Shown here: piece by piece, positions 16,381 through 35,643 of the stretch
How the letters are laid out: the number at the start of each line of letters is the position of its first letter
Position numbering within the stretch: position 1 is the stretch's first letter
Virus record (IMG/VR): IMGVR_UViG_3300037419_002114
Source of the DNA: an uncultured virus (IMG/VR IMGVR_UViG_3300037419_002114)
Lineage: Duplodnaviria > Heunggongvirae > Uroviricota > Caudoviricetes
Length of the DNA stretch: 64,000 nt
Reading direction: 5' to 3' (one strand)
Made by a program: the position numbers and the translations under genes
Notes under the pieces: model-generated
Database searches by the model: none
Told to the model about the DNA's origin: nothing
What the model saw: only the letters and a program-made list of their open reading frames with translations

Positions 16381-16541
16381 TATGTATCATCTCCTTTTTA
16401 TTTGTAATTTGTTTCTATCTATATTCAGTATAATTCAAAACAGTTAGAAAGCAAGATTTTGTTTGTTTTTCTTCCCGATCATACTCGGTTTTGTGTCTTT
16501 GGACCCTTCGAAATGCAACGAAAAAGGCGTATTTCTACGCC
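16381..16541 (-). repeat. Early cassette intergenic repeat A (terminator, SigA promoter, leader, RBS)
   Basis: Near-identical to 17103-17258, 17485-17560, 18368-18445: TTGmTT-TCTAACTGTTTTG..TATACT..TAGATAGAAACAAATT..AAGGAGATGATAC. Confidence 0.9.
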
Positions 16542-16834
16542 TTGGAATCGAACAACGTGTACAATCGAACCTCGTTGAACTGTGCTAGGATTTCGTGTGC
16601 AATCTCGGTTTTTTTCGCTTGATTCATCGTTGAATTCCGCCCATTGCATCGAATCCCTTTATATATCGTGAAACGATTCATATCGACAGAGAAATAAAAC
16701 CAATAGTATCTATTTTTATTTCCTTTTAGTTGAAATTTGCCCATAACTGAAAAGGACTCGTAAGGCGTATTTATGCAAAGGTGTTGCGTATCATCAATTT
16801 CTAGGTTCTCGATATGTAAATTAGTTGTTTTCAT
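16535..16834 (-). CDS. Hypothetical early protein
   Basis: GAGG RBS before MKTTNL; ends EVRLYTLFDSKA; stop inside terminator GGCGTAGAAATACGCC. Confidence 0.75.
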   Translation of the reverse strand: MKTTNLHIENLEIDDTQHLCINTPYESFSVMGKFQLKGNKNRYYWFYFSVDMNRFTIYKGIRCNGRNSTMNQAKKTEIAHEILAQFNEVRLYTLFDSKA

Positions 16835-17102
16835 TTTCCTCAGCCTCCTTTTTTGCAACATACTCAAGGAACTCGTCTAGTATGTATTGAAATTCCTTCA
16901 TACCCGTTAAACCTTCAAAATCGCTTTCGTCCTCATCTGTGTAAGGGTTATATTCCGTTTCAAGATACCCAAAGAACCAACCGCCTTCGTCCTCTTCACT
17001 AGGTTCGTCATAGTGAAAGTTTATTGTCAATTCCTCGCCATCGTGCATTACGTTTGCAATTCCAAATTCCGAACCATCATAGTAAATATTATATAAATTC
17101 AT
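16821..17102 (-). CDS. Hypothetical highly acidic early protein (cassette B)
   Basis: Follows repeat unit B; very Asp/Glu-rich. Confidence 0.8.
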   Translation of the reverse strand: MNLYNIYYDGSEFGIANVMHDGEELTINFHYDEPSEEDEGGWFFGYLETEYNPYTDEDESDFEGLTGMKEFQYILDEFLEYVAKKEAEENENN

Positions 17103-17258
17103 AGTATCATCTCCTTTTTATTTGTAATTTGTTTCTATCTACATTCAGTATATATCAAAACAGTTAGAAATCAAGAATTTGTTTTATTCTTCTTTTTAGT
17201 CCCGATCATAAGAAACACACAACCCAAAAACAACAAAAAAGGGCGTATTTCTACGCCC
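17103..17258 (-). repeat. Early cassette intergenic repeat B
   Basis: Same leader, promoter, CCCGATCATA box and GGGCGTAGAAATACGCCC terminator as repeat A. Confidence 0.9.
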
Positions 17259-17484
17259 ATTCTTTGCCGTTTTCTTCCTCGAACAGTTCCGCCAAACCTT
17301 CCGCCAATTCCTCGATTGATTCGATGAATTGGGCTTGGTATTCTTTCGAGTTTGGAAAGGAAATTTCCGCATCGTCCGAATCCATTCGGTACACCTCCGC
17401 CTTTCCATCTAGTAGAGTCACGCGGTAACCGTAATAAAATAGTATTTCCAAATCGCACATGCTTTGTATTAAGTTTATATTCAT
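17251..17484 (-). CDS. Hypothetical acidic early protein (cassette C)
   Basis: Follows repeat unit C; stop inside terminator. Confidence 0.8.
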   Translation of the reverse strand: MNINLIQSMCDLEILFYYGYRVTLLDGKAEVYRMDSDDAEISFPNSKEYQAQFIESIEELAEGLAELFEEENGKEWA

Positions 17485-17560
17485 AGTATCATCTCCTTTT
17501 TGTAATTTGTTTCTATCTGTCTATATCTTATATCAAAATAGTTAGAAATCAAGAATTTGT
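17485..17560 (-). repeat. Early cassette intergenic repeat C
   Basis: TTGATTTCTAACTATTTTG promoter variant and AGATAGAAACAAATTAC..AAGGAGATGATACTATG leader. Confidence 0.85.
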
Positions 17561-17689
17561 TTTTAAAGAAAAAAATAGCGGGATCGAAAATCGTTTTTTC
17601 GTTTCGTCCTCGTTTTTGATTGTCGTTACTGGTTTTTTTATGGTGTGCGTGCTGCGGTGAAGGTAACGAAAAAGGACGTTTCCGCCCTT

Positions 17690-18367
17690 TTAAATCTCGC
17701 CTAGTAGTCGTCCATCTTCCGTATAATATAAATCTATTTCTAATTCCGCCAAGTGTTCCGCCCATTGGTCCGAGGTGTAATAATCCAATTCAGCCGAAAT
17801 GAAAGAATCGATTTCTTCTATATCTTTCGTGTATGCCGCGTCCATCTGATAAAGATACTTACAGAGGATTTCATTTAATAGGTCGAAATCTTCCGAACCT
17901 AGAAAATTCTCAGTCGGACACGTTACCGCCAATAGGCGAATCGATGGAAGGCGACTAGGGTCGTACTTTTCAAGGAATCTATATAGGTTTTCATACGTCA
18001 GCTTTTCGGTGTGCCTATCTTCAAAGGTAAAACTAATTTCTCGTCCTGTATCCGGATTTCCAAACACATTGAAAATTGTTAATCCTAGGATTTCCTCAAC
18101 GTCCGAAAGGAATTCATCGAAGCCGTGCTTTTTATAAAAGTCGTCGTAAATTTCCAATTCATCAATTGAGGTCACACGTCCCAAATCGTCCCAATAAATA
18201 TCGACAAAGCCAAAGTGTATGTCGTCTAAGCAATTAAAGATGTCGTCTTTAATATGGTCAATCTCGCTTGAGTAATCTTTTATATATGCCTTTTTAAAGT
18301 TTTCTAGGGCTGTCTTTTTGGCATCGCCTTTTAATTCGTTATATGTATAAATATTTATTTGTTTCAT
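17690..18367 (-). CDS. Hypothetical acidic early protein (cassette D)
   Basis: MKQINIYTYNELKGDAKKTALE start, acidic, ends YYTEDGRLLGEI. Confidence 0.85.
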   Translation of the reverse strand: MKQINIYTYNELKGDAKKTALENFKKAYIKDYSSEIDHIKDDIFNCLDDIHFGFVDIYWDDLGRVTSIDELEIYDDFYKKHGFDEFLSDVEEILGLTIFNVFGNPDTGREISFTFEDRHTEKLTYENLYRFLEKYDPSRLPSIRLLAVTCPTENFLGSEDFDLLNEILCKYLYQMDAAYTKDIEEIDSFISAELDYYTSDQWAEHLAELEIDLYYTEDGRLLGEI

Positions 18368-18445
18368 AGTATCATCTCCTTTTTTAATTTGTTTCTATCT
18401 ACTAATATAGTACACCAAAACAGTTAGAAATCAAGTTTTTGTTTC
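18368..18445 (-). repeat. Early cassette intergenic repeat D
   Basis: TTGATTTCTAACTGTTTTG promoter and TAGATAGAAACAAATTAAAAAAGGAGATGATACTATG leader. Confidence 0.88.
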
Positions 18446-18857
18446 TTCTTTTCTTTGTCGAAACTCACGCCCTCAACTTTTATGATCGGGACACCTTGGG
18501 CAAAAATTAGGGCTTATTTTCCATTTTTTGGTGTATTTTTGGCTTATTTTTACCCACAAAATTGAAAAATGGGGCGTTTTTGTGAAGATTTGGACCATTT
18601 AAAAAGTAAGGTATAAATACCTTGACCGCTTTTTTTTAAGGGCAAAAAAGGGGCAAAAATAGGGGGTTCTTTTTTGTCGATGTATAGGGGTTTTATGACG
18701 AAAAAACTTTTTCTTTACTTTTTGGATCCTTCCGGTAATATAAAAAGAAAGTCCAAAAAATTGAGTCGAAAAAAGGCGAATTTCTAGGGATTTGTCTAAC
18801 CATGTCAAAAAATCGGTGTACCCGGTTTTATCTCAACATGCCCAAAATCGGACCAAA

Positions 18858-19042
18858 TGGTAAGTAACTTTAAAAGCGTAAGGAGGTGATGAAATGTAAG
18901 ACGCTTACCGTTTGGGTAGTTACTTACCAAAAAGATAGTCACTTACATTTTGTAAGTTACTAAAGGTTTGGTTAGTTACTGTCAATCTTATTAGTTACTT
19001 TTGGTTTGGTTAGTGATTTACTTTTTGTAAGTTACTTACTTT
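18858..19042. repeat. Array of about 10 degenerate GTAAGT/TAGTTACT repeats at ~18-20 bp spacing
   Basis: GTAAGTAACT, GTAAGACGCTTAC, GTAGTTACTTAC, TAGTCACTTAC, GTAAGTTACT, TTAGTTACT x2, GTAAGTTACTTACT. Confidence 0.8.
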
Positions 19043-19057
19043 CTACCCCGATCATAG

Positions 19058-19178
19058 TGATATTATCAAATTGACAACATCAAATTCTAGGGGTGTAAAT
19101 TTACACTTGATATTATTAAAATTACAATGTTATTCTTACAGTATCAAAATACAGGTTTGATATTATCAAAATAACATC
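19058..19178. repeat. Three TGATATTATYAAA boxes at exact 50-bp period
   Basis: Copies start at 19058, 19108, 19158; TGATA-T-TATCA is palindromic. Confidence 0.85.
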
Positions 19179-19530
19179 TTCATTTTACATTATTATTTTG
19201 ATAGGGTTGGGAATAAAATTGACCATTTCTGACCTTTTGGCAAAAATGAGATTTTAGGAAAAAATGCATTTTTTGAATTTGGGGGAAAAAGTAAATCTTG
19301 GTGCTGGGAGAAATCCGCCTATAATCTGCACGTTAGGAGGACCGCAAAAATCGCTTGAAAGTTGGTCGGCGAATTTTTCGAACTTCTTTTTCTTTTTTTG
19401 TTTTCGTTTCTTTTTATTTCGAATGGTTCGCTCTGGCAGCCCATTCTTTTTTTATTTCCGATCGTGATTCTCTATTGACTTCGTTGGATCTTCTCCGATA
19501 GAATAGTAGAAAACACGTTGGGAGAGCGTC

Positions 19531-19890
19531 ATGGACGACAACACGAAACCTTTACCGACTCATGGCGGTATCGTATTCGAATATAAAAAGTCATTTTTCG
19601 AAGCCATATCGAAACCAATCAACAACTATCCGAGAAGCACGCTCATTACATATCTGCACGATGACGAGCGTACATTATGCATTACTTGTGGCAAGATATT
19701 CGATTCGTACAACTTTATCATCTCGTTTAAAAAGAAAGATGGAACGTTCTACTATCAAACACGCACCTATACCGCAACCATCATTCCAGCGAAGTATAAA
19801 GCGTTAAGCAAAAAGATGATGCACGCGTATAACAAAGCATTCATCGATTTGGAAGTAAAAGAAATCCGCCTATTGCATCTATTGTTCTGA
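19531..19890 (+). CDS. Hypothetical protein with C-terminal RLLHLLF
   Basis: TTGACT..TAGAAT promoter, GGGAG RBS, terminator at 3' end. Confidence 0.8.
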   Translation: MDDNTKPLPTHGGIVFEYKKSFFEAISKPINNYPRSTLITYLHDDERTLCITCGKIFDSYNFIISFKKKDGTFYYQTRTYTATIIPAKYKALSKKMMHAYNKAFIDLEVKEIRLLHLLF

Positions 19891-19987: not shown

Positions 19988-20093
19988 AGGGGGTCTTTTT
20001 TCCTGGAAGGGGGTAAATTATATAGGCAGGGGGTAAAATATAGCAAGGGGGTAGCATTTTTTTCTAGGGGGTGATATACTGCAACTGAGGGGT
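19988..20093 (+). repeat. Six phased AGGGG(G)T boxes
   Basis: Starts at 19988, 20008, 20028, 20046, 20066, 20088. Confidence 0.85.
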
Positions 20094-20101
20094 GGTTATT
20101 T

Positions 20102-20434
20102 ATGACAATTCAGATCAATTTTAAAAGCCTAATATGGGAAATGACTCAGAGAAACATCTTTGATCACATCAGCGATGAACAAAAAAATAAACTAGAGATC
20201 CAACATTTCACACACATCAACCCAAATATGCGAACGGAGGAACTATTTCCGCCAAAAGAAAACAATCAGCGAAATCGAATCGGTATGGCTGTCTTTGCAA
20301 TGTTCGATTTTCTGCGGTTGAATACAAATGTTGACGCATCCATTACGTACCCAAAACGAAGCGAATACGTAACCTTTCCGACAGTTGCTGCGATATACGA
20401 TTATTTTTACGAATATATTCTCTTTAAAATCTAA
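20102..20434 (+). CDS. Hypothetical protein
   Basis: GAGGGG RBS and TATACT -10 upstream. Confidence 0.7.
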   Translation: MTIQINFKSLIWEMTQRNIFDHISDEQKNKLEIQHFTHINPNMRTEELFPPKENNQRNRIGMAVFAMFDFLRLNTNVDASITYPKRSEYVTFPTVAAIYDYFYEYILFKI

Positions 20435-20625
20435 ACCCTCTTGCATTTGCAGGAGATGATATGCTAAACTATAGAGGAGTTGAAACATAGGGTATAGAAA
20501 CACTCCTCGAAAAGTGCCTGCGGATATGCAGGTATTTTTTTATGTTTTTTTAACAAAATAGTTAATTTTCGTGTATAGTAAAGGGGTAAGAAAACAACAA
20601 AAAAACCTAAGGGGGATATATTCCT

Positions 20626-20874
20626 ATGTCAAAAGTTATTCCATTTCCAGTTCGCACGCGGTTAGATGATATTCAAGAAATGAGTGCTGAGTTTCAAAAG
20701 CCAATCTTCACCGATTACAGTGACGATATGTACGATGCGATGTTTGCCGTTCGCAAAGACTACCAAAAACCAGCATCTGATTTCGTAGAAGTTGAAGCAA
20801 GTCCAGCCGACCATCAAGCCAAATTCGATTTGCTAGAACAAATTGCAAAAGATGTTAAGGAAGGTAGAGCATAA
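20626..20874 (+). CDS. Hypothetical protein
   Basis: AAGGGGG RBS; coupled to the next ORF. Confidence 0.7.
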   Translation: MSKVIPFPVRTRLDDIQEMSAEFQKPIFTDYSDDMYDAMFAVRKDYQKPASDFVEVEASPADHQAKFDLLEQIAKDVKEGRA

Positions 20875-21173
20875 TGGAATACAGTGGATCTTTCCTCATT
20901 GAAAAAGAAAACGAAGTCGTAACGGTCAAATTAAACATCGATCAAGTTACGTTTCCGATAATGGCCATCGGCATTGTTAGAAATGGCAAATGCAACAACT
21001 GGGCAATTTCGCATGAAAGCAGTTACCTGTATCCGTGCACATGTGGGAAAGAACATCTTGAACATGACGACAGAGAACGTTGCACAACATGGAGAAAAAG
21101 TACAAGCCAGATCAAAGAATGGTTGGAATCCAACAGAGATATCCAAAACTTCCTAGAAACCAACTCAAAGTAG
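20874..21173 (+). CDS. Hypothetical protein, possible Zn-binding (CTCG..H..C)
   Basis: TAATG overlap with upstream ORF; terminator AAACCAACT..AGTTGGTTT at end. Confidence 0.7.
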   Translation: MEYSGSFLIEKENEVVTVKLNIDQVTFPIMAIGIVRNGKCNNWAISHESSYLYPCTCGKEHLEHDDRERCTTWRKSTSQIKEWLESNRDIQNFLETNSK

Positions 21174-21237
21174 TTGGTTTTTTTCATGAAAAAAGTTGCA
21201 TTCTAACTGTTTTGATATATGATGGAAGTATAAGGAG

Positions 21238-21567
21238 ATGATAAATATGCGTTATAAAGAATTTACATTATTGGATTGCTGCGTAGAAAGAGAAGGAGAT
21301 TATCAAGGAACAAAATACATGGAAGTAGAAGTGAAATTGGATTTTTATACAGACGAAATTATAGAAATTACATTGCATCAAGATAAAAACAAAGAATGGT
21401 ACGTACATATGATGGGAATAAAAATAGAAATATCAGAAGATGAAGAAATATATGCAGATAGAATTTGGAACTTTTACGAAAAGATATATGATCAAATTAA
21501 CAAACAAGAACTGGTTCGAAAAATAATGGAGCATCCAAAAGCAAGATTATTGTTTTTATTCATATAA
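21238..21567 (+). CDS. Hypothetical early protein, paralog 1 (ends HPKARLLFLFI)
   Basis: TTGCAT-TCTAACTGTT promoter, AAGGAGATGATA leader; likely start 21247. Confidence 0.85.
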   Translation: MINMRYKEFTLLDCCVEREGDYQGTKYMEVEVKLDFYTDEIIEITLHQDKNKEWYVHMMGIKIEISEDEEIYADRIWNFYEKIYDQINKQELVRKIMEHPKARLLFLFI

Positions 21568-21572
21568 AGGAG

Positions 21573-21890
21573 TTGATAAACATGCGGTATAAAGAGTTTA
21601 CCATAACAGAATGCAACGTCATCAACGAGCAAAGCATTCAAAAGAGAGGAAACATGCATCTTCATATTAAAATAGACATTTATGATAAAGAAATCGAAGT
21701 CTTTCTCATGCAAAGTGAAAAAAAGAAGTGGTATGTCAATTCCATCGGTCCGGTACAAAAAAAATACAAATACCAATACATCCCCCACTTTGAATTCAAT
21801 GATGAAATCGGTAAAAAACTTCGCAGAAAAGACATTTTACAAAAAATCATGGAGCACCCACACGCGAGATTACTGTTCTTATTTATCTAA
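21573..21890 (+). CDS. Hypothetical early protein, paralog 2 (ends HPHARLLFLFI)
   Basis: Shares MRYKEFT start and KIMEHP.ARLLFLFI end with the upstream gene; likely start 21582. Confidence 0.85.
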   Translation: MINMRYKEFTITECNVINEQSIQKRGNMHLHIKIDIYDKEIEVFLMQSEKKKWYVNSIGPVQKKYKYQYIPHFEFNDEIGKKLRRKDILQKIMEHPHARLLFLFI

Positions 21891-21963
21891 GGCAGTAATT
21901 TTTTTCTTGCAATTTAAAAATATGGTAGTATATAACAAACAGATAGTAAAGGAGATGATATCT

Positions 21964-22149
21964 ATGAAACAATTTATATACGAAAACAAACTAGAATTGA
22001 TCGGATTTGTATTAGGCGGTATGATTTTTGCTGCCTTCGTACTGTTTATGTCAAAAGAACAAATCCACCAGCACCACATTGTTATTGCCATTGCTTGCAG
22101 TATACCGTTCGCAATGATAAAAGCGTTTAAAGTAGATGATGCGAAATGA
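21964..22149 (+). CDS. Small two-TM membrane protein
   Basis: TTGCAA..TATAAC promoter, AAGGAGATGATA RBS, two hydrophobic segments. Confidence 0.7.
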   Translation: MKQFIYENKLELIGFVLGGMIFAAFVLFMSKEQIHQHHIVIAIACSIPFAMIKAFKVDDAK

Positions 22150-22478
22150 GAATCTTCGAATTACGCACTGATAACGTTGTACATATTTGCTTTACCGATA
22201 GCATTTTTAAGCCACAACGCCAAAAAATTCGCTTTGCAAGCGTTGAAGAAGCCGACTGCTTCGTAAATGTAATGGCAACTGTTCGAAAACTCATCGATGA
22301 AAAATATCGAGGGGATATCGAATGTGCCGTACTGAGTAATAAACGATTGGATCTTTATGTTAAACCGCATATCCAGCGAGAAGAAGTTATCAACTTGATC
22401 GCTAAGATTCAAAAGATAAAGAACATACGACGGTTTATCGAAAAGTATACGACCTTATCCGCTAGAAGCATTAAATAG
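22146..22478 (+). CDS. Hypothetical protein
   Basis: ATGA overlap with upstream ORF. Confidence 0.6.
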   Translation: MRIFELRTDNVVHICFTDSIFKPQRQKIRFASVEEADCFVNVMATVRKLIDEKYRGDIECAVLSNKRLDLYVKPHIQREEVINLIAKIQKIKNIRRFIEKYTTLSARSIK

Positions 22479-22652
22479 AAAAGAGGTGTTTAGGATGCGT
22501 AAAAAATGGCGTAGACGATATAACGCAAAGAAAAGATACCCAAAACCTTCATCATTTGGATTGTTCAAATGGTTTCGGAAATAAAAAGGACTGCATTCAA
22601 ACAGTCTTTTTTATTTTCTAACTGTTTGGTATACTAAAAATGAGGTGAGAAA

Positions 22653-22931
22653 ATGATTGTAAACATGGAAATCGAAAAAGTACGACAGTGGAGTGGCGGA
22701 TATGCAATGAAAATCTTTATCGAATTATTTACTGGAAGAGAGAACACATATAGAGAAACATTTGTGTTCACCGATGAAGATTTACAAATCACAGAAATGG
22801 GAAGCCAACATCACCTAAAAGAAATCATTCAGCAACTCATCACCATTGAAAGACTTGGAATCATAACAGGAGTATTCCAGATCTGGGATGAAGATGTATT
22901 TCATTTTGATGTAGAAAGAGGGTTCTTATGA
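22653..22931 (+). CDS. Hypothetical early protein
   Basis: TCTAACTGTT box and TGGTATACT -10; GAGGTG RBS. Confidence 0.75.
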   Translation: MIVNMEIEKVRQWSGGYAMKIFIELFTGRENTYRETFVFTDEDLQITEMGSQHHLKEIIQQLITIERLGIITGVFQIWDEDVFHFDVERGFL

Positions 22932-23257
22932 AATATGAAATTTTAAAGACAATGCAATCGGACGATGGAAGTTATACAATTCTTTTTGAAAAAATTAAAA
23001 CAGAGGAAACAGAAGAAATACTAGAAGTTTGGAAAGGGTCATTTCCTTCACCTTGGAGTAAGACAAGAGAGTTAGTTATCATGGATAGTGATTTAAAACA
23101 CCTAACGTATCAATCCACAAACGTGTTACCAGGATTTGATGAGTTTTTAAAAAAAGAACGCACTGCTATTATTGTGCAAGGATATGAACTAATGGCAATG
23201 AAAGATGTTCATAAGTTCATGGTGGAGAAAACAACAGAAAAATGGGTATTGGGATAA
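22928..23257 (+). CDS. Hypothetical protein
   Basis: ATGA overlap; bidirectional terminator AAGACCGC..GCGGTCTT follows. Confidence 0.75.
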   Translation: MKYEILKTMQSDDGSYTILFEKIKTEETEEILEVWKGSFPSPWSKTRELVIMDSDLKHLTYQSTNVLPGFDEFLKKERTAIIVQGYELMAMKDVHKFMVEKTTEKWVLG

Positions 23258-23277
23258 GACCGCTCAAAGGCGGTCTT

Positions 23278-23517
23278 TTATTTTGCGTACTTTATCGCTA
23301 GATACGTCTGAAAAAACGGAACATCCTCCCACGCAATGTTTCGCAGCAGGTAACATGTTTCGCAAAGAGTAACGATATTGTCGAGTGAATCGTACCCTGG
23401 AAATGGGTCGTTGCGAATCCGATCAAAATAAGCTTGATGAAAATCTACGTGTTTTGTGCATCGAATACACTGTCGGCCATCACGAATGTAAACGATTTTT
23501 TGAATGTCAACATTCAT
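23278..23517 (-). CDS. Small HNH-like protein (degenerate)
   Basis: VYIRDGRQCIRC...DNIVTLCETC; canonical His residues not evident. Confidence 0.65.
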   Translation of the reverse strand: MNVDIQKIVYIRDGRQCIRCTKHVDFHQAYFDRIRNDPFPGYDSLDNIVTLCETCYLLRNIAWEDVPFFQTYLAIKYAK

Positions 23518-23650
23518 CCGAACACCTTTTTTGCAAGGAGAATGGCTGCGTCCAATCCAACAATGAACAAAATAAAATAAAGCAACGACCATACCAACTG
23601 TTCCGGAAGCTCACGCGGTTTCTTTTTTGTTTTGTACACATAACACCTCT

Positions 23651-23935
23651 CTAAAGTGCTTGAAGTAAAAACAACAATCGATATTTAGGTTGTTCCTGCA
23701 GGTAATCCGTTACTTCTTTTAAAATGGATGCATGCATCTTAGAAGGAATATCTAAATACTCTTCTGTTCCAATCATCCAAAATGCCGATATCTTTTGTTG
23801 GTTTGCTTTTGGGCTGGTAGATTTATAATAAACTACTTGCATCCCATATCGTGCATCGCCAAAATCAAATTGAAAATCAATTAAATAGGAATTTGCCGAT
23901 TCTGTTTCGCAATCAATGCAAATATTTTCGATCAT
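23651..23935 (-). CDS. Hypothetical protein with C-terminal PKYRLLFLL
   Basis: GAGGTG RBS and TATACT -10. Confidence 0.75.
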   Translation of the reverse strand: MIENICIDCETESANSYLIDFQFDFGDARYGMQVVYYKSTSPKANQQKISAFWMIGTEEYLDIPSKMHASILKEVTDYLQEQPKYRLLFLLQAL

Positions 23936-24025
23936 TCCATCACCTCATTGGTTAGTATACCCAATTTAAAAAAAATGTTGCAAATTCTTCTAACTGTATT
24001 ACAATATGCTAAAGGAGTGATAAAC

Positions 24026-24352
24026 ATGAGTGAAAAAATTCTAATTACTCATATTCAGTTACAAGACATAAAGGAACAACAAGGATTCATTAGTTTCAAC
24101 CTTACCGCGTATATTCAAGGACAACTTCGATCGGTCAACGTGATGAAAATAAATGGATATAGCAAGATGATTGTACATAGTGTGAAGGTTGCAAATTTTT
24201 CAAAGGATTCGAAAGGAAATCATGTTGTTAAACTTGGTGCTGACTTCACTCAAAAATATAAGACAGAAGCCAAGAAGCAAATCGAACAAAAAATCTTCCA
24301 CTACTTAGAAGAGGAATGTAAGAAAACAAGATTGTTGCTGCTCTTTGCATAA
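24026..24352 (+). CDS. Hypothetical early protein with C-terminal RLLLLFA
   Basis: TCTAACTGTA box upstream, AAGGAGTGATA RBS, terminator after stop. Confidence 0.8.
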   Translation: MSEKILITHIQLQDIKEQQGFISFNLTAYIQGQLRSVNVMKINGYSKMIVHSVKVANFSKDSKGNHVVKLGADFTQKYKTEAKKQIEQKIFHYLEEECKKTRLLLLFA

Positions 24353-24402
24353 AAAAAAGAAACCGTATCTAAATCGATGCGGTTTTTCTCTGTTATACTA
24401 AT

Positions 24403-24497
24403 AAAAAGAACCTTCGGAGATAGAGCCGAAGGTTAGATAGAAATAAATATATGGAGTTGATACTTTTAATGTGGATCTAGCGAACTTGCATTCGCAT
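24403..24497 (-). ncRNA. Candidate ~95-nt trans-acting sRNA antisense to early-gene leaders
   Basis: TTGACA(24531-24526)-16-TATAAT(24509-24504); 5' hairpin GCGAA..TTCGC; terminator AACCTTCGG..CCGAAGGTT-CTTTTT; middle complementary to TAGATAGAAA..GGAGWTGATACT. Confidence 0.7.
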
Positions 24498-24527
24498 ATC
24501 TTTATTATATCGATATGGTTTTGCTTG

Positions 24528-24920
24528 TCAATATGTTTTTCTACGAAATCCTGCTTTTTGAATATCATCTTCTTTTTCAAGAAAATACATAAAAGCATCG
24601 ATTTTATTTTTCATGTCACGAGGGAGAATTTCACCCTTCGCATTTGTCATCTGATTGAACAACCACATCAACATGCCAGCAACAAATTGACTTCGATTAT
24701 TCGGAACATCATCCATCTTATAATTCGCTTCCATCGTGTCGAGCACTTGATCGAAATACGTCAGCAAATCTTCCGGTAGCTCCAATTCCACTCGTTTCTT
24801 TTTTACCTTTCGTGTTTTCGTATTCTTGAATCGACACACGTCCATCATATGAAGCGTGCTAACAAATGCTTCACGCTGGGCATTACTATATTTCTTTCCA
24901 TTTGATTTAGTATTTGCCAT
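24528..24920 (-). CDS. Putative ribbon-helix-helix DNA-binding protein
   Basis: KKRVELELPEDLLTYFDQVL..NRSQFVAGML strand-helix-helix pattern; AGGAGGTG RBS. Confidence 0.6.
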   Translation of the reverse strand: MANTKSNGKKYSNAQREAFVSTLHMMDVCRFKNTKTRKVKKKRVELELPEDLLTYFDQVLDTMEANYKMDDVPNNRSQFVAGMLMWLFNQMTNAKGEILPRDMKNKIDAFMYFLEKEDDIQKAGFRRKTY

Positions 24921-25206
24921 TTCTCTCACCTCCTACTTCAAATGGTACATCAAAACAGGAAAAAATCAACAAAAACGTACGTTATTTTCAATATCGTTAT
25001 TTTATCGTCAACATACGGACGTTAATTTTATAATCCGAATGTTGATTGCAACGTCATGGAGATACGAAAAATACGCACAAAAAGGGTCATTTTTGACACT
25101 TTTACGATCGCTGACGATACATTACCTTAACTTGCAATGTCGAAAACCTTGCGGATAATGTCGAAAAGCCGGAACTTAACTGTTTTGTGTACAAAATATG
25201 AATCTA

Positions 25207-25234
25207 GTAAGACATAATGTAGTTTTACGAACCC
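25207..25234. other. dif-like 11-6-11 tyrosine recombinase site
   Basis: GTAAGACATAA-TGTAGT-TTTACGAACCC; reverse complement GGGTTCGTAAA ACTACA TTATGTCTTAC resembles Xer dif arms. Confidence 0.65.
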
Positions 25235-25415
25235 TTTTTTGTACCGGAAATAGAATCAATTACAGTTAGAATCTACTTCTACGGATAGTCCGTTTTATGA
25301 ATATCCATCCTTTAAGTGGGATGCGGTAGCAGAACACTTAAAGGACTGGCTGCCAGAACATTTTCGTTGCAAAAACACAAATCGGAGGTACAATAAAACA
25401 GAAGGAGGTGGCCAC

Positions 25416-26288
25416 ATGCAGACGCTAAAATACTATGACATTCGAAATCAAGAGTTCAAGATGCTAGGAGAGAAGATACAAAAGGCTAGGCAGATACAGC
25501 GTATCTTTCTAAAAGGAAATAACATACGTCATCATTATGAATACGTAAGTTTTAAGCAAGATGTATTCGATCATGAATTTGATAACAATCGTGTTTGGAT
25601 TGCAACCTATATGCATTCTGAAAATGAAAAACAACAGGACTTTGCATTTATTGACGATGAGGAATTTGGAATCTTCTGCTTCATGGTAAGTTTCCGAAAC
25701 AATGTCGTGAAGTATTTAAAAGATGACCATTTCCAGTCGCTTTATCGAACGGCAAAAGGGGAATTATATGAAAAGGAAGAGGACAAGTATCTTGCCATCG
25801 TAAAAAAAGCACTTGAATGGGAAAAACCAAAGTGGAATGTAGACATCACTAAAAATACAACCTCGCATAAAGAACTAACAATGAAGTTCTCGACTGACAG
25901 ATACATCTATGAAGCACAAGAGTTCTTCAATAAAATAGAAACCACGTTTGATAAAACATCCTTGCGTTCTTATGTCGATATCACAATTCATACAGGAAAG
26001 TTTAACCGACACAAAAAAGAAGTTCTCTATTATATGGAATTTGAACGTAAAGTACATAAACGCATTCACTTTCTCATTAAACTATACAAATTAAGCACGA
26101 CCCAACGCAGAATCTACTTTTTGTTGCACGATCGATATTACGATTATCACATCGATCTGATTCGAGAGTATAACGATATTGTATTCAACCTCGGACAAAA
26201 GCATCGGATACTGGAAACGAATATCTACGCATGCAGATTATCAGAGTTTGGACAAGCAGGGTTCAATGCGTTCAAACCGCTTTATTAA
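25416..26288 (+). CDS. Hypothetical protein
   Basis: TTGCAA..TACAAT promoter, AAGGAGG RBS, terminator after stop. Confidence 0.8.
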   Translation: MQTLKYYDIRNQEFKMLGEKIQKARQIQRIFLKGNNIRHHYEYVSFKQDVFDHEFDNNRVWIATYMHSENEKQQDFAFIDDEEFGIFCFMVSFRNNVVKYLKDDHFQSLYRTAKGELYEKEEDKYLAIVKKALEWEKPKWNVDITKNTTSHKELTMKFSTDRYIYEAQEFFNKIETTFDKTSLRSYVDITIHTGKFNRHKKEVLYYMEFERKVHKRIHFLIKLYKLSTTQRRIYFLLHDRYYDYHIDLIREYNDIVFNLGQKHRILETNIYACRLSEFGQAGFNAFKPLY

Positions 26289-26400
26289 GGCACTTTTAAA
26301 AAAAGTGTCTTTTTCTATTTATTCCCTGATCATTTCCTATTGCTTTCTTTTTATAGAAAATGGTATAAATGTAACAGGAAAACTTTTAGGAGGGAAAACA

Positions 26401-26823
26401 ATGATATTCCACAAAGATGCGATTGACTTTGAAGTATCACTGACAGATTGCTACTTGCCTTACATCGGACCAAAGGCTTATGGATATTTTATGTTTATTA
26501 CACGTTTCAGTGAATGGAACAATAAAGGAATCAGAGTTTCAAATACAAAAAGAAGCGAAATACTGAAAAAGATAAGAATGAGCACAAAAACAGTCATTCA
26601 CATCGAAAAAATACTTGAAGCAACAAACCTAATCAAACTAAAAAGGGAATCGCAAGGAAGAGGAAACAGAACTATCGTCTATGAAATTTACAATCCTCTG
26701 CAAGAAGAACAATTCAAAAAGGTAGAATCTGAAATAAAGGAAGCATTGGTAGACTTTGCGGAAACATATCCTAAAGGGGCAACACTTCTAGGGAACGAAA
26801 TTAGAAAAAGAATGGGGCGATAA
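26401..26823 (+). CDS. Winged-HTH replication-associated protein (DnaD-N-like)
   Basis: YLPYIGPKAYGYF..ILKKIRMSTKTV..LEATNLI; AGGAGG RBS at MIFHK. Confidence 0.6.
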   Translation: MIFHKDAIDFEVSLTDCYLPYIGPKAYGYFMFITRFSEWNNKGIRVSNTKRSEILKKIRMSTKTVIHIEKILEATNLIKLKRESQGRGNRTIVYEIYNPLQEEQFKKVESEIKEALVDFAETYPKGATLLGNEIRKRMGR

Positions 26824-26824
26824 A

Positions 26825-27154
26825 ATGCCTATCATAAGAAGCGAAAAGCAAGGCGGTAATTTTGTCGTTTCGGATAAGGGATATGTTGAAGATGAACGTT
26901 TATCATGGCAAGCAAAGGGTATCATGATATACGCCTTATCAAAACCAAACAATTGGAATCTTTTCATAAAAGACTTAATAAATCAAGCGACAAATGGAGA
27001 ACACGCAGTAGGACAAGCATTAAAAGAGTTAGAAAAATTCGGTTATCTATACCGAAGAAGAAACCGAGGGGCAAGTGGAAAGTACAACAACTATGAAACC
27101 TTCGTCTACGAATCACCAAAACTGAATCCTTTTTTTTCAGAAGAAACCACCTAA
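26825..27154 (+). CDS. Phage replication initiator N-terminal HTH domain (apparently truncated)
   Basis: NFVV..DERLSWQAKGIMIYALSKPNNW..ALKELEKFGYL..VYESP. Confidence 0.75.
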   Translation: MPIIRSEKQGGNFVVSDKGYVEDERLSWQAKGIMIYALSKPNNWNLFIKDLINQATNGEHAVGQALKELEKFGYLYRRRNRGASGKYNNYETFVYESPKLNPFFSEETT

Positions 27155-27157
27155 ACG

Positions 27158-27275
27158 TGATTTTCCTGTTCTGGATAATCCTAATTAGGAAAATCCTAAA
27201 CTGGATAATCGCCTAGTAATAAATAATTACTTAAATAAAGAATTACTTAAATAAGTAATTAAAGAAATAAAAAAT
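27158..27275. repeat. Probable replication origin: 15-bp iterons plus AT-rich repeats
   Basis: TGATTTTCC / GGATAATCC / GGAAAATCC / GGATAATCG at 15-bp period, then AATTACTTAAATAA twice. Confidence 0.65.
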
Positions 27276-27503
27276 ATAGTGCATTTGATTCTTTTTCCAA
27301 TTCAAAAGCAATGGTTTTATGTTTTCAAATCTTTTAAGATAATGATAATGCTCGAAAACACGTTTTCTCGCATAAAGATAAAAACATAACGCTTCGCTAG
27401 AATAGGTCAAAATCAAAAGAAAAAAAGACGCTTCGCTAGTAAAGTTCAAAAGATTAAAACCTTCCCTTTTAACAGGAAAAAGAAAAGATAAGGAGAAAAC
27501 AAA

Positions 27504-27902
27504 ATGGCAAAGCAAAAACTACCACCAGCTTCAGATTGGAAAGAAAGAAAACTTGAAAATTGGAACACGACCACCTTCATCGCATACATGCAAGATATGA
27601 ACCAAGAAAAGTACAACTTGCCATATACACCATTCGCTGGAATAATGGCAGAAAAAAGAATGTTGAAACTAGCTCAGGAGGAAATGGGTAACCAAGTATT
27701 GAAAGAACTTATTGACCTAGCATTTAAAGAGAAGAAGCAGAGTGAAAGAAATCTTTGCTTAAATTACGGATTCATTCATACGTATATGAAACCTTCTCTT
27801 TATCCACGCATCATTAAAAAAATACAAGAAGAGGAAGAAACAAGAAAGCGTGAAGAAAACAAAGTCATCAAAAGCAAAGAAGAGTTAAAAAAGTTCTTTT
27901 AG
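27504..27902 (+). CDS. Hypothetical replication-module protein
   Basis: AAGGAG RBS; upstream of the helicase loader; WNTTTFIAYM motif. Confidence 0.7.
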   Translation: MAKQKLPPASDWKERKLENWNTTTFIAYMQDMNQEKYNLPYTPFAGIMAEKRMLKLAQEEMGNQVLKELIDLAFKEKKQSERNLCLNYGFIHTYMKPSLYPRIIKKIQEEEETRKREENKVIKSKEELKKFF

Positions 27903-27912
27903 GAGAGAGAAT

Positions 27913-28230
27913 ATGACAGAGAAAGAAAGACAGGTACTGCAAGATGTTCGCAATTACACGCAGGATATTATTCTTGTTCCAAAGCCCATTATTTCCCCTC
28001 TCCATCGTGACAACTTAGAAATCATCTTCAAGGTGCAGAAAGAATATCCAGGATTCGTTGTTTTGATCGGAGAACTAAAAGCAGACGATACGTTCAATCC
28101 GCACATGTCGATGGTGAGTTGGATACCGAATTGGGATTTCTACGGCAACAGTATCAACTATCTTCTTTACGATAAGATGTACAACCGTTTTCGATTGGAT
28201 CTTTTATTTTTACCGATAAAACGTACTTAG
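27913..28230 (+). CDS. Hypothetical protein with C-terminal RFRLDLLF
   Basis: AGGAG RBS, in operon. Confidence 0.7.
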   Translation: MTEKERQVLQDVRNYTQDIILVPKPIISPLHRDNLEIIFKVQKEYPGFVVLIGELKADDTFNPHMSMVSWIPNWDFYGNSINYLLYDKMYNRFRLDLLFLPIKRT

Positions 28231-28236
28231 GAGTGA

Positions 28237-29025
28237 ATGATGACGATGAGTGAACACCAAAAAAAATGTATCTTAAATCCGTTCTGCAAAGTCGCAGGCA
28301 CAGACGTATGCAACGATTTCTGCGGTCAGTATATTGCCATTCACGGTCGTTCCGGAGAAGGAATACGTGCTGGCAAACCTGCAGGCATACCGAAAGAATA
28401 CGCACTTGAAATGCTTCAAAATTCGAAGGTCCGCGAACAACAACCGGATGCATACGACATGATTGATTCATACGAACAAAGTTTCGTAAAAATCTTCAAC
28501 GATACAACAGACGTAGAAGAGCGAATGAAAAACGTATATCTTTGGTCAGAAAACAAAGGAACAGGAAAAACGTATACGGCAGTTTGTATTCTCAATTCGT
28601 TCTTATCTCGCTACTACATAGGATGCTTAAAGCGAGGAATACAACCTGTACAAAAACCGATATACTTCCTCGACTTCAACAAATTGCACGCTGACTATTC
28701 GCAAATGACTCGTCAAGGCGTTCCTCGTGACATTGCCGAAGAGTCCGGTGAACGATACTATGCAGCGTTAGAGAATGCAAAAACAGCGTTATTTACCTGC
28801 TTCGATGAAATGGGTGTTAGAACGGTATCAGAGAACATGCTTCCGGATATCTTAGGACTTTTAAACCATCGAATCTACGAAATGAAACCAAGTATTTACA
28901 CATCAAACTTACGAATTACACAACTTCCGACCATTTTCAAAGAAGAGAGGGTGTTTGATCGAGTGAGAGATTTAACGATTGAAATTGAATTTACAGGGGA
29001 GTCACACAGGGGGCATAGAGAATGA
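28237..29025 (+). CDS. DnaC/IstB-like helicase loader ATPase
   Basis: N-terminal Cys cluster, GTGKT, FDEMG, IYTSN, RVFDRV. Confidence 0.85.
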   Translation: MMTMSEHQKKCILNPFCKVAGTDVCNDFCGQYIAIHGRSGEGIRAGKPAGIPKEYALEMLQNSKVREQQPDAYDMIDSYEQSFVKIFNDTTDVEERMKNVYLWSENKGTGKTYTAVCILNSFLSRYYIGCLKRGIQPVQKPIYFLDFNKLHADYSQMTRQGVPRDIAEESGERYYAALENAKTALFTCFDEMGVRTVSENMLPDILGLLNHRIYEMKPSIYTSNLRITQLPTIFKEERVFDRVRDLTIEIEFTGESHRGHRE

Positions 29026-29807
29026 TGTATCCATTATTTGAAATCGGAGATTGTGTTGTTGTTGTAAACCATCAGACCAAACGAGTCAGCAGTGAGTTTC
29101 ATACCATAAGCGGAGTGTTCGAATTTTCAGAGGGGAAGTATCACTACTTTTTAGATAATGAGTGGACAACCATCTTTCAAGAGGATGCACTTACCTATTA
29201 CAATCCGGACTTCTCAACATACGAAGAATATGACCACTTCTTTCAAACGAATGAAGAGGAAGAAGAATCACACAACAGATTCATGGAAAACGTCAAGCGT
29301 GAGTACCCAGACGTATTCAAAGAGGACGAAGAACTTTCTGATGAAGAATATCTTCGCATTCCTGCCATTGAGTGTCGGTACAACATCGGAGATATGGTAG
29401 AATACAAAAATGAAGAATACGAAGTCGTTGGGTACAAAGTAGAAGTGAGCTACTACTCAAAAACAGACCAATGGTCAAAGGCAATGTATGACCTTGTGCA
29501 TAAAAGTGGTAAGCGTGAGCGTGCAGAGGAAAAAGAGTTAAAACTCATCAAACCAAAAGAAGAAACCCAATCAAGCCTGCTTCCGATGTTGCGTGCAGAA
29601 TTGAATCAAATCAAAAAGGAAAAGAAAAAACAGTCACTTGACGAACTTCTTGATTTCTATAACACCTTAAAATACTTAGCAGACCTTACAGGGGATACCA
29701 AATACCTACGTGATGCAAATGTATTGATGGAGCAAATCAAAACAGGCGATCGAAACATTGACCTTGAACTATTCATGCGATTCATGAACAGAACGATAGA
29801 AGATTAG
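29022..29807 (+). CDS. Hypothetical protein with two SH3/KOW-like repeats
   Basis: FEIGDCV and YNIGDMV modules; C-terminal LDELLDFYN helix. Confidence 0.7.
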   Translation: MMYPLFEIGDCVVVVNHQTKRVSSEFHTISGVFEFSEGKYHYFLDNEWTTIFQEDALTYYNPDFSTYEEYDHFFQTNEEEEESHNRFMENVKREYPDVFKEDEELSDEEYLRIPAIECRYNIGDMVEYKNEEYEVVGYKVEVSYYSKTDQWSKAMYDLVHKSGKRERAEEKELKLIKPKEETQSSLLPMLRAELNQIKKEKKKQSLDELLDFYNTLKYLADLTGDTKYLRDANVLMEQIKTGDRNIDLELFMRFMNRTIED

Positions 29808-29819
29808 GGAGGAAGATTC

Positions 29820-31163
29820 ATGCAATTTGGTGAAATGCTCATTTCAAAAATAATGGAAGATAAGAATAAAGACATACTCACAAAGTATGACCTCAAGCGT
29901 CATCACTTTATGCACCAAAACGAAAGGGAAGCGTTTGATTTTATAACGGAGTACCTTGATATTTATCGCCAGTTGCCTGATCCTAGAACCCTTCTTTCGA
30001 AGGTAAAAAATCTCACCCTTCATCAAAATGTTGAGGACAGTTATGACTTTTTGGCAGAGCAGGTAAAAGGAACGTCCTCAAAGGTACAAATTTCTGAGAT
30101 GATTAAAACGCAGGCTGCCCAAAAAATGAAAGAACTAAGCGGCCAAGAGTTCATCGATTGGATGCTACAAGAAGCACAAGAAATTAAAAAGGATACACAA
30201 GTTGCCGTATCCCTTGGAAATAATTTTGCCGATTTAAAAACCGTAATGAAAGACGAATACCTTGCTCGTAAAAATGGTGATTCCACCAAAACGTACAAAA
30301 CGCCATTCACATCTTTAAACGATGTTGTCGAAGGGTTTCAATCTTCGGATCTTATCACGATACTTGGCGAGAGTGGTCGTGGTAAAACGTTTATTACGTT
30401 AGCGTTTATCGATTCTCTTCTTCGTCAAGGAGCGAACATTCTCGTTAAATCCTACGAGGTTCGTTCATACCTTTGGTTGTCACGTTTAATGTCTATCCTT
30501 ACCGCAAAAGAAGGAAAACTGCGTGATGAATACCGCCAAAAAGTAGGACTAGCCAACAAGCGAATCTTAGCAGGTAAACTAACCGATTCCGACCAAGCGT
30601 ACTTCTTCGAAATGCTCGATAAATTAAATGAATATTATCCAGGAAATTTGCACCTTCAAGCGAAAGCAGACCCCGGTATCACACGAACGCTTGCTGACCT
30701 TGATCGAGAACTAACGCAACATCCGGAAATTGACGTTGTGGTTATCGACCCATTCTATGGACTCGAAGATTGTTATAGCGGTAAAAATAACAATCGAACG
30801 GCAGGCGGTAGTGCAGAAGCAGCCGCACGTCAACTTGAATACCTTGCAGGAAAACATGATGTGGTCATGATGACTGTAGTGCAAGCCACAGTTGAGAAGC
30901 AAAAACAAGACGAAAATAACAAGCGTGAGTTGAAGCTCCCAAAACGTGACCAAGTAAAAACAACAAAAGCCATTTTAGAAGCATCCACACTTCTTTTTTC
31001 ATGGGATAGTGTTGACGGAATCGCCAAAATTGGCATTGAAAAAGGTCGTAATGGCGGTGAAGGGTTTGAACTTGAACTCGTAGCCCTCTTAGATTATGGC
31101 GTAATAAAAGAGCCATCCAATATGGAAGCATTGGATGACCAATTTGATACAGAAGGCATGTAA
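29820..31163 (+). CDS. DnaB-like replicative helicase
   Basis: GESGRGKT, SYE, VVVIDPFY, VQA, IEKGRNG. Confidence 0.9.
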   Translation: MQFGEMLISKIMEDKNKDILTKYDLKRHHFMHQNEREAFDFITEYLDIYRQLPDPRTLLSKVKNLTLHQNVEDSYDFLAEQVKGTSSKVQISEMIKTQAAQKMKELSGQEFIDWMLQEAQEIKKDTQVAVSLGNNFADLKTVMKDEYLARKNGDSTKTYKTPFTSLNDVVEGFQSSDLITILGESGRGKTFITLAFIDSLLRQGANILVKSYEVRSYLWLSRLMSILTAKEGKLRDEYRQKVGLANKRILAGKLTDSDQAYFFEMLDKLNEYYPGNLHLQAKADPGITRTLADLDRELTQHPEIDVVVIDPFYGLEDCYSGKNNNRTAGGSAEAAARQLEYLAGKHDVVMMTVVQATVEKQKQDENNKRELKLPKRDQVKTTKAILEASTLLFSWDSVDGIAKIGIEKGRNGGEGFELELVALLDYGVIKEPSNMEALDDQFDTEGM

Positions 31164-31167
31164 AAAA

Positions 31168-31202
31168 GTCGCTGGTGTAAACTACCAGCGATTATTTTTT
31201 TT
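31168..31202 (+). terminator. Intrinsic terminator after helicase
   Basis: TCGCTGGT..ACCAGCGA followed by a T run. Confidence 0.8.
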
Positions 31203-31208
31203 GTCATT

Positions 31209-31238
31209 TGTGAAAAAAAGAACTCTAGCCCGTAGATA
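31209..31238 (+). promoter_or_regulatory. Candidate phage-sigma promoter TGTGAAAAAAA-N10-CCGTAGATA
   Basis: Identical bipartite motif at 41608-41637; both follow terminators. Confidence 0.65.
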
Positions 31239-31334
31239 TAAGGGAGAAAAGAAAAAGTTGTATGACAAACCTCCTTCATTTACTGAAATGAAAATGCTAT
31301 AATGGGAACATAAGTACGCAATGGGGGAAAAAAT

Positions 31335-31943
31335 TTGCAAAAGTCAAGAGAACAAACGTTGAACTTTTTAGCCGAGCAGTACATATCAAAACCGAATGCA
31401 GATACGTTGGACGCGTTAATTCGTGCATTCGATCAAGAGTACAGACCAAAATACGAGTGGATTGCCACCCAGCAAGTGCGTAATTATGACGTTCAAGAAG
31501 TGCAAAGCGAATACGAGGACACGTTACTGAAAGTGATTGAAGCGTATGTACCAGGAAACAATTTTACGAAACTGTTAGACGTTTCATTAAAACGTAAGCG
31601 AATCGATATGGCAGAAAAACAAAAGACTCGCAAAAAACATACACAATCCTTTCATGTGTTTGAAGATGGGTCCAGCACAGAAAAGAACCTTAGCATGGAC
31701 AAGCATAAAGAAGAAAAAAAGAAAGAAAAAAAAGAAGCAAGAGTGGAACTCATCAACTTCTTTATGGAACACACCCAAGATGCTGAAACAAAAAAGATAC
31801 TTCAAGAAGCATCTAAATTTAAAAATATGAACCAGTTAGCACTTCATCTAAATATGCATCCTCAGACACTCAAACGAAAGTTAGAAAGTCTGAAAAAGAT
31901 ATACGATGAAAGAAGGTTCGGGAACTACAAAGAGTTTTTGTAA
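31335..31943 (+). CDS. Phage sigma-factor-like protein
   Basis: Region 2-like EDTLLKVIEAY..NFTKLL and C-terminal HTH MNQLALHLNMHPQTLKRKL. Confidence 0.7.
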   Translation: MQKSREQTLNFLAEQYISKPNADTLDALIRAFDQEYRPKYEWIATQQVRNYDVQEVQSEYEDTLLKVIEAYVPGNNFTKLLDVSLKRKRIDMAEKQKTRKKHTQSFHVFEDGSSTEKNLSMDKHKEEKKKEKKEARVELINFFMEHTQDAETKKILQEASKFKNMNQLALHLNMHPQTLKRKLESLKKIYDERRFGNYKEFL

Positions 31944-31966
31944 GCACTAACTGATTCACTACGTGT

Positions 31967-31995
31967 ATTATCTCATGTTTCTCGTACTTTGTCAA
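31967..31995 (-). promoter_or_regulatory. SigA promoter pointing antisense into the sigma-like gene
   Basis: TTGACA-17-GATAAT with extended TG on the - strand. Confidence 0.65.
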
Positions 31996-32043
31996 ACATA
32001 GGGGGCGGTATAGCGTAGCACTACACATAATGGGGGAAGCAAA

Positions 32044-32418
32044 ATGAAAATTATTAAAGGTGAAATTTACTTGGTGGATCTTGGTGATAACTCAAGAGGG
32101 TCAGAACAAAAAGGAATCCGCCCATGTGTTATCCTACAAAATAACATTGGAAATCGATTCTCAACGACAACCATCTGTGGATTACTCACAACAAAAGAGA
32201 AGAAAAACAAAAAGAAAAAACACTTTCCAATGCATGTTCCAATTCAGAAATTAGCCATTGAAAAAAATGGTTTACAAAGCGATTCACTCCTTTTATGCGA
32301 ACAAGTATTTACGATTTCAAAAGATCGATTGATAAAACGTTTAGGGGTCATCACACCGACCTCACCACTGATGAAACAAATTGATGAAGCACTCAAAATT
32401 AGTTTTGGGATTCAATAA
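32044..32418 (+). CDS. PemK/MazF family endoribonuclease
   Basis: GEIYLVDL..GSEQKGIRPCVILQNNIGNRFS..DSLLLCEQVFTISKDRL. Confidence 0.92.
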   Translation: MKIIKGEIYLVDLGDNSRGSEQKGIRPCVILQNNIGNRFSTTTICGLLTTKEKKNKKKKHFPMHVPIQKLAIEKNGLQSDSLLLCEQVFTISKDRLIKRLGVITPTSPLMKQIDEALKISFGIQ

Positions 32419-32433
32419 AAGGAGGACATAAAG

Positions 32434-33195: not shown

Positions 33196-33263
33196 TCCTC
33201 GTTTGGTGCTCTTGCATCCCCTGTAAGAGCACCTACATAACATAAAAAATTAGGAGTGGTAAA

Positions 33264-35623: not shown

Positions 35624-35643
35624 GAAAAACTAGGAGGAACAAA

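Follow-up and report, generated by a model that had tools for sequence, protein, structure and literature searches.

A candidate minus-strand antisense RNA facing the shared leader of four early cassettes in an uncultured soil phage

Introduction

Can a single small RNA turn down several separate early transcription units of a phage by recognising a leader that they have in common? The question is raised by a short locus, downstream of a 130-aa gene, in the genome of an uncultured soil phage whose hosts are Bacillus-like bacteria. To our knowledge, the known phage antisense regulators (c4, CI, sar and OOP) each act on one neighbouring target. Furthermore, among the literature matches listed, no title or abstract opening describes a phage RNA directed against a leader common to several early transcription units. 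The original prediction, made from the letters of the DNA, placed at this locus a stand-alone RNA that silences a whole early regulon and serves as an immunity or lysogeny switch. We analysed the locus within the whole stretch of 64,000 nt, hereafter called the window.

Results

Genome context

The window approximates a nearly complete phage genome, and the features discussed here are collected in Table 1. Its rightward arm encodes DnaD-, DnaC- and DnaB-like replication proteins, nucleotide metabolism, a MazF-like protein and a small sigma factor. HNH/homing endonuclease genes were seen near the split terminase gene. The integrase-like gene stands alone on the plus strand within the packaging module, an observation that bears on a temperate lifestyle. 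As had been claimed, no CI-type repressor was recognised among the approximately 90 ORFs of at least 55 aa that were scanned. The nearest cultured phages have Brevibacillus, Bacillus and Sporosarcina hosts and 40-44% portal identity; KLEB27-1, the one of these that was inspected, has a different, siphovirus-like layout.

Table 1. Positions of the RNA unit, the cassettes and other features in the window
Feature	Position	Strand	Details
Sigma-A promoter of the RNA unit	24531-24504	-	TTGACA 24531-24526, 16-nt spacer, TATAAT 24509-24504
Predicted RNA, ~96 nt	24401-24497	-	both ends predicted
5'-proximal hairpin	24495-24480	-	GCGAA / TTCGC stem
Open core, 45 nt	24479-24435	-	antisense to cassette leader
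Core part complementary to leader 5' block	24435-24450	-	
Core part complementary to Shine-Dalgarno block	24453-24464	-	
Intrinsic terminator	stem-loop 24434-24409, U-tract to 24400	-	9 pairs, 5 G-C; tail CTTTTTATT
Second terminator, bidirectional	24387-24358	both	ends plus-strand gene 24026-24352, backs up minus-strand unit
Leader copy, promoter-less	24435-24463	+	13/16 and 10/11 letters of the two invariant blocks
130-aa early gene, no recognised family	24920-24528	-	strong Shine-Dalgarno; cassette-type promoter ~24942-24969
Cassette A promoter and leader	16384-16457	-	gene 15874-16380
Cassette B promoter and leader	17104-17177	-	genes 16821-17102, 16535-16834
Cassette C promoter and leader	17486-17555	-	gene 17251-17484
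Cassette D promoter and leader	18369-18437	-	gene 17690-18367
-35/spacer block of cassettes			invariant 17/21
-10/discriminator of cassettes			invariant 3/13; 46% pairwise identity
Leader 5' block of cassettes			AGATAGAAACAAATTA; invariant 16/16 in four cassettes
A-rich linker of cassettes			length varies, 5-10 nt
Shine-Dalgarno block of cassettes			GGAGATGATAC; invariant 11/11 in four cassettes
TCTAACTGTTTTGAT sites	16434-16448, 17154-17168, 17532-17546, 18414-18428, 21202-21216, 22617-22631, 23990-24004, 24949-24963, 47301-47315		
Packaging and head genes	62-8841	-	
Tail, baseplate and lysis genes	48-64 kb	-	
Large terminase gene, interrupted by a pair of group I introns	7549-8219, 6516-8841	-	Rfam 79.8 and 73.6 bits
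Integrase-like tyrosine recombinase, 283 aa	8926-9774	+	PHROG 216, E 2e-40
Hydrophobic C-terminal tail	21247-21567		...RLLFLFI
Hydrophobic C-terminal tail	21582-21890		...RLLFLFI
Hydrophobic C-terminal tail	23651-23935	-	...RLLFLLQAL
Hydrophobic C-terminal tail	24026-24352	+	...RLLLLFA
Hydrophobic C-terminal tail	19531-19890		...RLLHLLF

Four leftward early cassettes share a leader

Four leftward units, which begin at 16380, 17102, 17484 and 18367 and are finished by repeated terminators, have an 81-nt module in common. The module runs from a -35 hexamer (TTGATT) through the conserved spacer TCTAACTGTTTTGAT and a variable -10/discriminator to the leader. When the usual 7-nt spacing from the -10 was applied, the predicted start of the leader fell on its own first conserved letter. 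An all-versus-all comparison of 27 early-region proteins returned 21247/21582 as the sole homologous pair, the cassette proteins being mutually unrelated. Since no two cassette proteins match, the shared leader is a portable regulatory module and not a by-product of gene duplication.

The spacer motif was also seen in its own right between the -35 and the -10 of at least nine early promoters, in both arms. Allowing up to 3 mismatches, TCTAACTGTTTTGAT matched 12 times versus 4.4 expected, and it may serve as an operator or as a contact element for polymerase.

Signals and fold of the minus-strand RNA unit

The consensus promoter that the original prediction had read on the minus strand was confirmed. 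It is the sole 12/12 site among 44 promoter-like sites between 14000 and 30000, and the sole 12/12 of the 21 sites scoring at least 10/12 on both strands of the 64-kb window, where 0.10 sites of that score are expected from base composition. It also outscores the cassette promoters. The strong terminator that had been claimed was likewise found, 70-95 nt downstream of the promoter, together with a back-up terminator. We placed the putative RNA start at about 24497, 7 nt past the -10, and the putative end in the U-tract. The predicted RNA has a minimum free energy of -21.3 kcal/mol (z -4.4), a stability equalled by 0 of 200 shuffles, and its predicted fold consists of two hairpins flanking a weakly structured core.

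The coding content of the ~96-nt RNA amounts to one 6-codon ORF at the extreme 5' end, which has no Shine-Dalgarno, in agreement with the claim that no credible ORF lies there. A 66-aa ORF at 24598..24398 was considered as a gene and rejected: it has no Shine-Dalgarno, starts inside the 130-aa gene in another frame, and traverses the promoter and both hairpins. A search for tRNA and tmRNA genes returned none. Judged by its sequence signals, the unit thus has a promoter of its own and an intrinsic terminator around a short predicted non-coding transcript, as is expected of a base-pairing regulatory small RNA.

The description of the unit as stand-alone did not hold. The TGA stop codon of the 130-aa gene (24530-24528) overlaps the -35 hexamer of the RNA unit, and therefore the unit doubles as the 3' UTR of that gene. 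Its terminator is required by the 130-aa gene in any case, which counts against the anti-leader reading. The 130-aa protein had no Pfam, PHROG or PDB match and fell in unnamed clusters only in the Atlas; its AlphaFold model was unusable (pLDDT 45.2), and a ribbon-helix-helix-like stretch was seen by eye only. The start region of the 130-aa gene itself ranked 71 of 104 as a target of the RNA in the co-folding described below, which indicates no self-targeting.

A promoter-less leader copy lies on the opposite strand

On the plus strand of the same locus, both invariant blocks of the cassette leader recur, separated by a linker of 2 nt that is shorter than in the cassettes. The pattern AGATAGAAANAAA-N(3-16)-GGAGNTGATAC occurred 5 times in the window, namely in the four cassette leaders and in this copy, versus 0.00 times in shuffles. 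Because the plus-strand copy carries both blocks, the core of the minus-strand RNA is the antisense of the leader from about +1 to just before the start codon. Close to the core lie the terminator at one end and the 5' hairpin and promoter at the other.

The conserved -35/spacer block was not detectable up to 82 nt upstream of the copy, where alignment scores of 19, 14, 13 and 15 were equalled by 17, 258, 367 and 131 of 500 shuffles, respectively. A promoter remnant suspected there by eye was thus not significant against shuffles, and no plus-strand promoter of at least 9/12 was found in 24340-24430. After the copy, the sequence holds just ATG TGG ATC TAG and no part of a cassette gene; then comes coding sequence on the opposite strand. 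The letter at 24457 agrees with that of the single gene 21582 and not with that of the four cassettes; drift of a dead copy would give the same result.

Predicted pairing with the cassette mRNAs

The full 98-nt RNA was co-folded with 104 translation-initiation regions (-50 to +15), and the free energy of dimer formation was calculated. Ranks 1 to 4 of the 104 regions were taken by cassettes A, C, D and B, with -23.0, -19.7, -19.6 and -19.4 kcal/mol, respectively. The best non-cassette region gave -14.8 kcal/mol, and the mean over the 104 regions was -7.2 (sd 4.1). For cassette D, the co-fold reproduced the colinear blocks of 10, 4, 4 and 7 bp on which the original prediction had relied. The duplex has imperfections: the Shine-Dalgarno block holds an A/A mismatch and the 5' block a C/A mismatch, and 7-12 nt of linker stay unpaired. 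When the core was dinucleotide-shuffled 100 times, the observed energy was reached by 0 shuffles for cassette A, 1 for B, 0 for C and 0 for D, and the shuffled A/U-rich cores bound the cassette leaders at -10 to -13 kcal/mol.

A genome-wide two-step search was also performed, in which the best 200 of 12,742 segments of 65 nt, chosen by duplex energy, were co-folded. The cassettes ranked 1, 3, 4 and 6, and the non-cassette sites in the top six were 35291-35355 and 21281-21345, both on the plus strand. Enrichment of the cassettes among the top targets, a check named beforehand, was therefore observed in both searches. Raw duplex energy of the core, calculated without structure, was not cassette-specific: among 25,580 segments, nine other A/U-rich sites scored better (-24.2 to -26.8 versus -22.0 to -23.6 kcal/mol for the cassettes). 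An accessible region of the predicted RNA is thus complementary to the initiation regions of its putative targets beyond chance, raw energy alone being not discriminating.

The original prediction had further named a match before gene 21582 and related ribosome-binding sites before other genes, and extended the regulon to them. The sequences are present: GGAGTTGATA precedes 21582 and GGAGATGATA precedes 21247 and 21964, in a search that gave 9 matches versus 0.28 expected, and the sites before 24026 and 47346 read GGAGTGATA. In the co-fold, gene 21582 ranked 6, 47346 ranked 8, 21964 ranked 10, 21247 ranked 15 and 24026 ranked 45. Their energies of -14 to -7 kcal/mol, versus -19 to -23 for the cassettes, and the fact that they have only the extended Shine-Dalgarno in common, restrict the predicted target set to the four leftward cassettes rather than the whole early regulon. 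We take the GGAG-N-TGATA block to be largely a generic extended Shine-Dalgarno, presumably complementary to the 3' tail of Bacillus-type 16S rRNA.

Relatives and natural variants

The locus and the 130-aa protein were compared with 50,697 phage records by megablast, blastn and tblastn, and no match was returned. In IMG/VR, searched with four proteins and the leader pattern, one near-identical contig was found; it lacks the cassettes because it spans only about 20040-39068 of the window. A search of 5.8 billion proteins gave one homologue of the 130-aa protein (P0003, 91% identity). The leader pattern also had single matches in metagenome and genome contigs (4 + 4), which were judged to be chance; the metagenome matches lay in unrelated contexts, and the genome loci (L010-L013) had no blastn similarity to the window.

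The DNA of the window was present in 10 soil or rhizosphere DNA runs, among which no RNA run was listed. In run X2, a 3,170-nt contig over the unit had 16 substitutions, 0 of them within 24400-24531, where about 0.7 were expected. A contig of run X4 (24416-24715) had 15 substitutions. Run X4 also showed the loss of 1 nt from the T-run at 24464, where the predicted 7-bp block next to the Shine-Dalgarno complement ends; the exact place of this deletion is ambiguous because it lies within a T-run. Run X10 had no contig across 24439-24497. Over 24416-24776, the variant contigs of X4 and X10 diverge by about 5-10%. Moreover, run X2 contained a variant without 17186-17564 (cassette C), whose junction lies inside the 81-nt promoter/leader repeats. 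Recombination between these modules therefore occurs in nature and adds or removes cassettes.

Comparison with known RNA classes

At the gathering threshold, Rfam returned two group I introns only from the whole window. The C4 antisense RNA is an Rfam family, and at E<=10 the 16 weak matches within 24300-24650 included none of the c4 type, so that the unit is not assigned to it. RsaOG (RF01775) matched at 26.6 bits (E 0.034), below its 50-bit gathering threshold, with a match extending into the promoter, and was rejected. A cis-antisense RNA of the sar or OOP type was rejected as well: the targets lie at 16.4-18.4 kb, and the opposite strand has no promoter and a 3-codon ORF. For a type I toxin-antitoxin pair, no small hydrophobic toxin ORF overlapping or convergent with the unit was found. 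The convergent plus-strand gene encodes 108 aa, and terminators separate it from the RNA unit.

Discussion

The reading that we place foremost, tentatively and somewhat short of an even chance, is an anti-leader antisense RNA that would turn down the four cassettes. Host sigma-A polymerase would make an abundant, stable minus-strand RNA of about 96 nt, and the early mRNA of the 130-aa gene would carry the same RNA as its 3' UTR. Two hairpins would flank and protect an open 45-nt core, the inverted copy of the cassette leader. Pairing of the core with the cassette mRNAs would start at the predicted first nucleotide (10 + 4 bp), go on over the Shine-Dalgarno (4 bp) and take in the 7 nt that follow, as far as the start codon. 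Such pairing could block ribosome binding and would probably expose the cassette mRNAs to decay, so that one RNA would jointly lower four non-homologous early genes. Its role may be a timed or delayed shut-off of early genes, or a carrier-state lock on potentially toxic ones. To judge from the sequence, temporal early shut-off would fit as well as the immunity or lysogeny role originally proposed. Points against this reading are the mismatches in the duplex, the raw duplex energies, the two non-cassette sites in the top six, the binding by shuffled A/U-rich cores and the largely generic character of the Shine-Dalgarno block. The broader picture, a Bacillales phage that marks four unrelated early genes with one leader 'barcode' and may have turned an inverted copy of it, placed between the strongest promoter of the phage and a terminator, into a trans-acting silencer RNA, is held with slightly less confidence.

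Since the leader/promoter repeats recombine, the leader fragment could be a recombination scar in the 3' UTR of the 130-aa gene, and any short RNA made there would not regulate the cassettes. The X2 variant joined inside the repeats is in keeping with this relic explanation, as are the 3/16 and 1/11 mismatches of the copy with its shortened linker, the need of the upstream gene for a terminator and the raw duplex energies that are not unique to the cassettes. However, a relic leaves unexplained why the only perfect sigma-A promoter of the phage drives about 96 nt of non-coding sequence, why the surviving letters coincide exactly with the two invariant blocks and sit between a 5' hairpin and a terminator, and why the 90%-conserved -35/spacer block has left no trace. 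We consider it unlikely, though a serious competitor.

The RNA might also be real and have other targets, either host mRNAs or Shine-Dalgarno-led mRNAs in general, or the promoter might control convergent read-through, the leader match being secondary. The CUCC-containing anti-Shine-Dalgarno stretch would pair with any extended Shine-Dalgarno, the second-tier genes 21582, 47346, 21964 and 21247 stand at ranks 6-15, and the convergent layout with two terminators would suit control of read-through from gene 24026-24352. Nevertheless, the complement of the 5' block (10 + 4 bp) is cassette-specific, with a gap of about 5 kcal/mol over all other start regions, and this explanation appears improbable to us. 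Finally, the function could reside in the plus strand, whose leader-like RNA or 3-codon mini-ORF would then serve as a decoy for a leader-binding factor. Its RNA would fold alike because both hairpins are palindromic, a TG-extended -10-like TATACT was seen by eye at 24391-24399, and a weak terminator-like site lies at 24480-24495. This proposal is very hard to credit, given the far stronger signals on the minus strand, the lack of any promoter of at least 9/12 noted above, a GGAG-to-ATG spacing of 12 nt versus 8 in the cassettes and a hairpin at 24409-24434 that has no U-tract on that strand.

Several known regulators resemble the putative anti-leader RNA in part. The c4 RNA is processed from the operon of its single target (icd/ant). 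As described in PMC12197685, c4 of the P1/P7 immI region is a non-overlapping antisense RNA whose complementary stretches copy target sequences, and it blocks translation around the ribosome-binding site (PMC12197685, citing Citron and Schuster 1990). Like c4, the candidate would be a phage RNA, non-overlapping, built from copies of target sequence and aimed at the ribosome-binding site; unlike c4, the RNA unit has its own consensus promoter, and its four putative target units are separate and lie on the same strand at a distance of 6-8 kb. The sar RNA overlaps the gene that it targets, with full complementarity. In contrast, the opposite strand at the present locus holds only a promoter-less leader copy, and the predicted pairing is partial and multi-target. 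In phage P22, this antisense RNA is reported to be about 68 nt long and to prevent the translation of an early regulator from being initiated (PMC12197685).

The CI RNA of satellite phage P4 is described as a small RNA that brakes early genes of its own phage via the repeated complementary sequences seqA and seqC (PMC4825925). It is processed from the leader of the controlled operon and acts by premature transcription termination, whereas the putative targets here are distinct cassettes. A translational block is suggested for the candidate because its pairing covers the mRNA 5' end and the Shine-Dalgarno. The RegB endoribonuclease of T4 is described as inactivating many early mRNAs post-transcriptionally via the GGAG shared by their ribosome-binding sites (PMC3014915). 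RegB is a functional analogue and not a relative: it is a protein nuclease, whereas in the present case recognition would fall to an RNA, and the 5' end of the mRNA is part of the shared tag. The layout of the unit resembles that of the MicL/DapZ type, with no sequence relation. The 3'-UTR sRNAs of this type start from a promoter at the end of the preceding coding sequence and share the terminator of the mRNA; they are host-encoded, Hfq-dependent and Gram-negative.

If the anti-leader reading is true, the locus would be an RNA-level regulon switch that acts in trans on a leader common to separate early transcription units, and would show a way in which phages standardise and co-control host-takeover genes. 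The leader/anti-leader pair would be portable and could be used for Gram-positive synthetic biology. Should the architecture recur in unrelated phages, it might represent a general early-gene shut-off where a protein repressor is unrecognisable.

Other features of the early region

Some further features were noted in the window. The second-best sigma-A promoter (11/12 with TG), at 31967-31995 on the minus strand, falls between a 202-aa gene (31335-31943) and the MazF-like gene (32044-32415); it is directed antisense into the 202-aa gene and may give a cis-antisense RNA. Just past gene 20102-20434, at 20452-20540 on the plus strand, the only ORF after a GGAGATGATA Shine-Dalgarno has 9 codons, and a hairpin and a terminator come next; the segment may encode a tiny peptide or form a structured 3' UTR. 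The approximately 800 nt of non-coding DNA between the divergent early arms (18440-19260) are dense in repeats of the GTAAGTTACT / GGTTAGTTAC type and hold three 25-nt repeats at 50-nt spacing (19058, 19108 and 19158), each with a -35-like TTGACA; this region may serve as an origin or as an array of promoters or operators. Moreover, five early proteins end in a similar hydrophobic C-terminal tail (Table 1, which gives the position of each gene), and only the proteins of 21247-21567 and 21582-21890 are homologous. Such a tail could serve as a common C-terminal tag, for example a degron, a membrane anchor or a peptide that binds a clamp or another partner.
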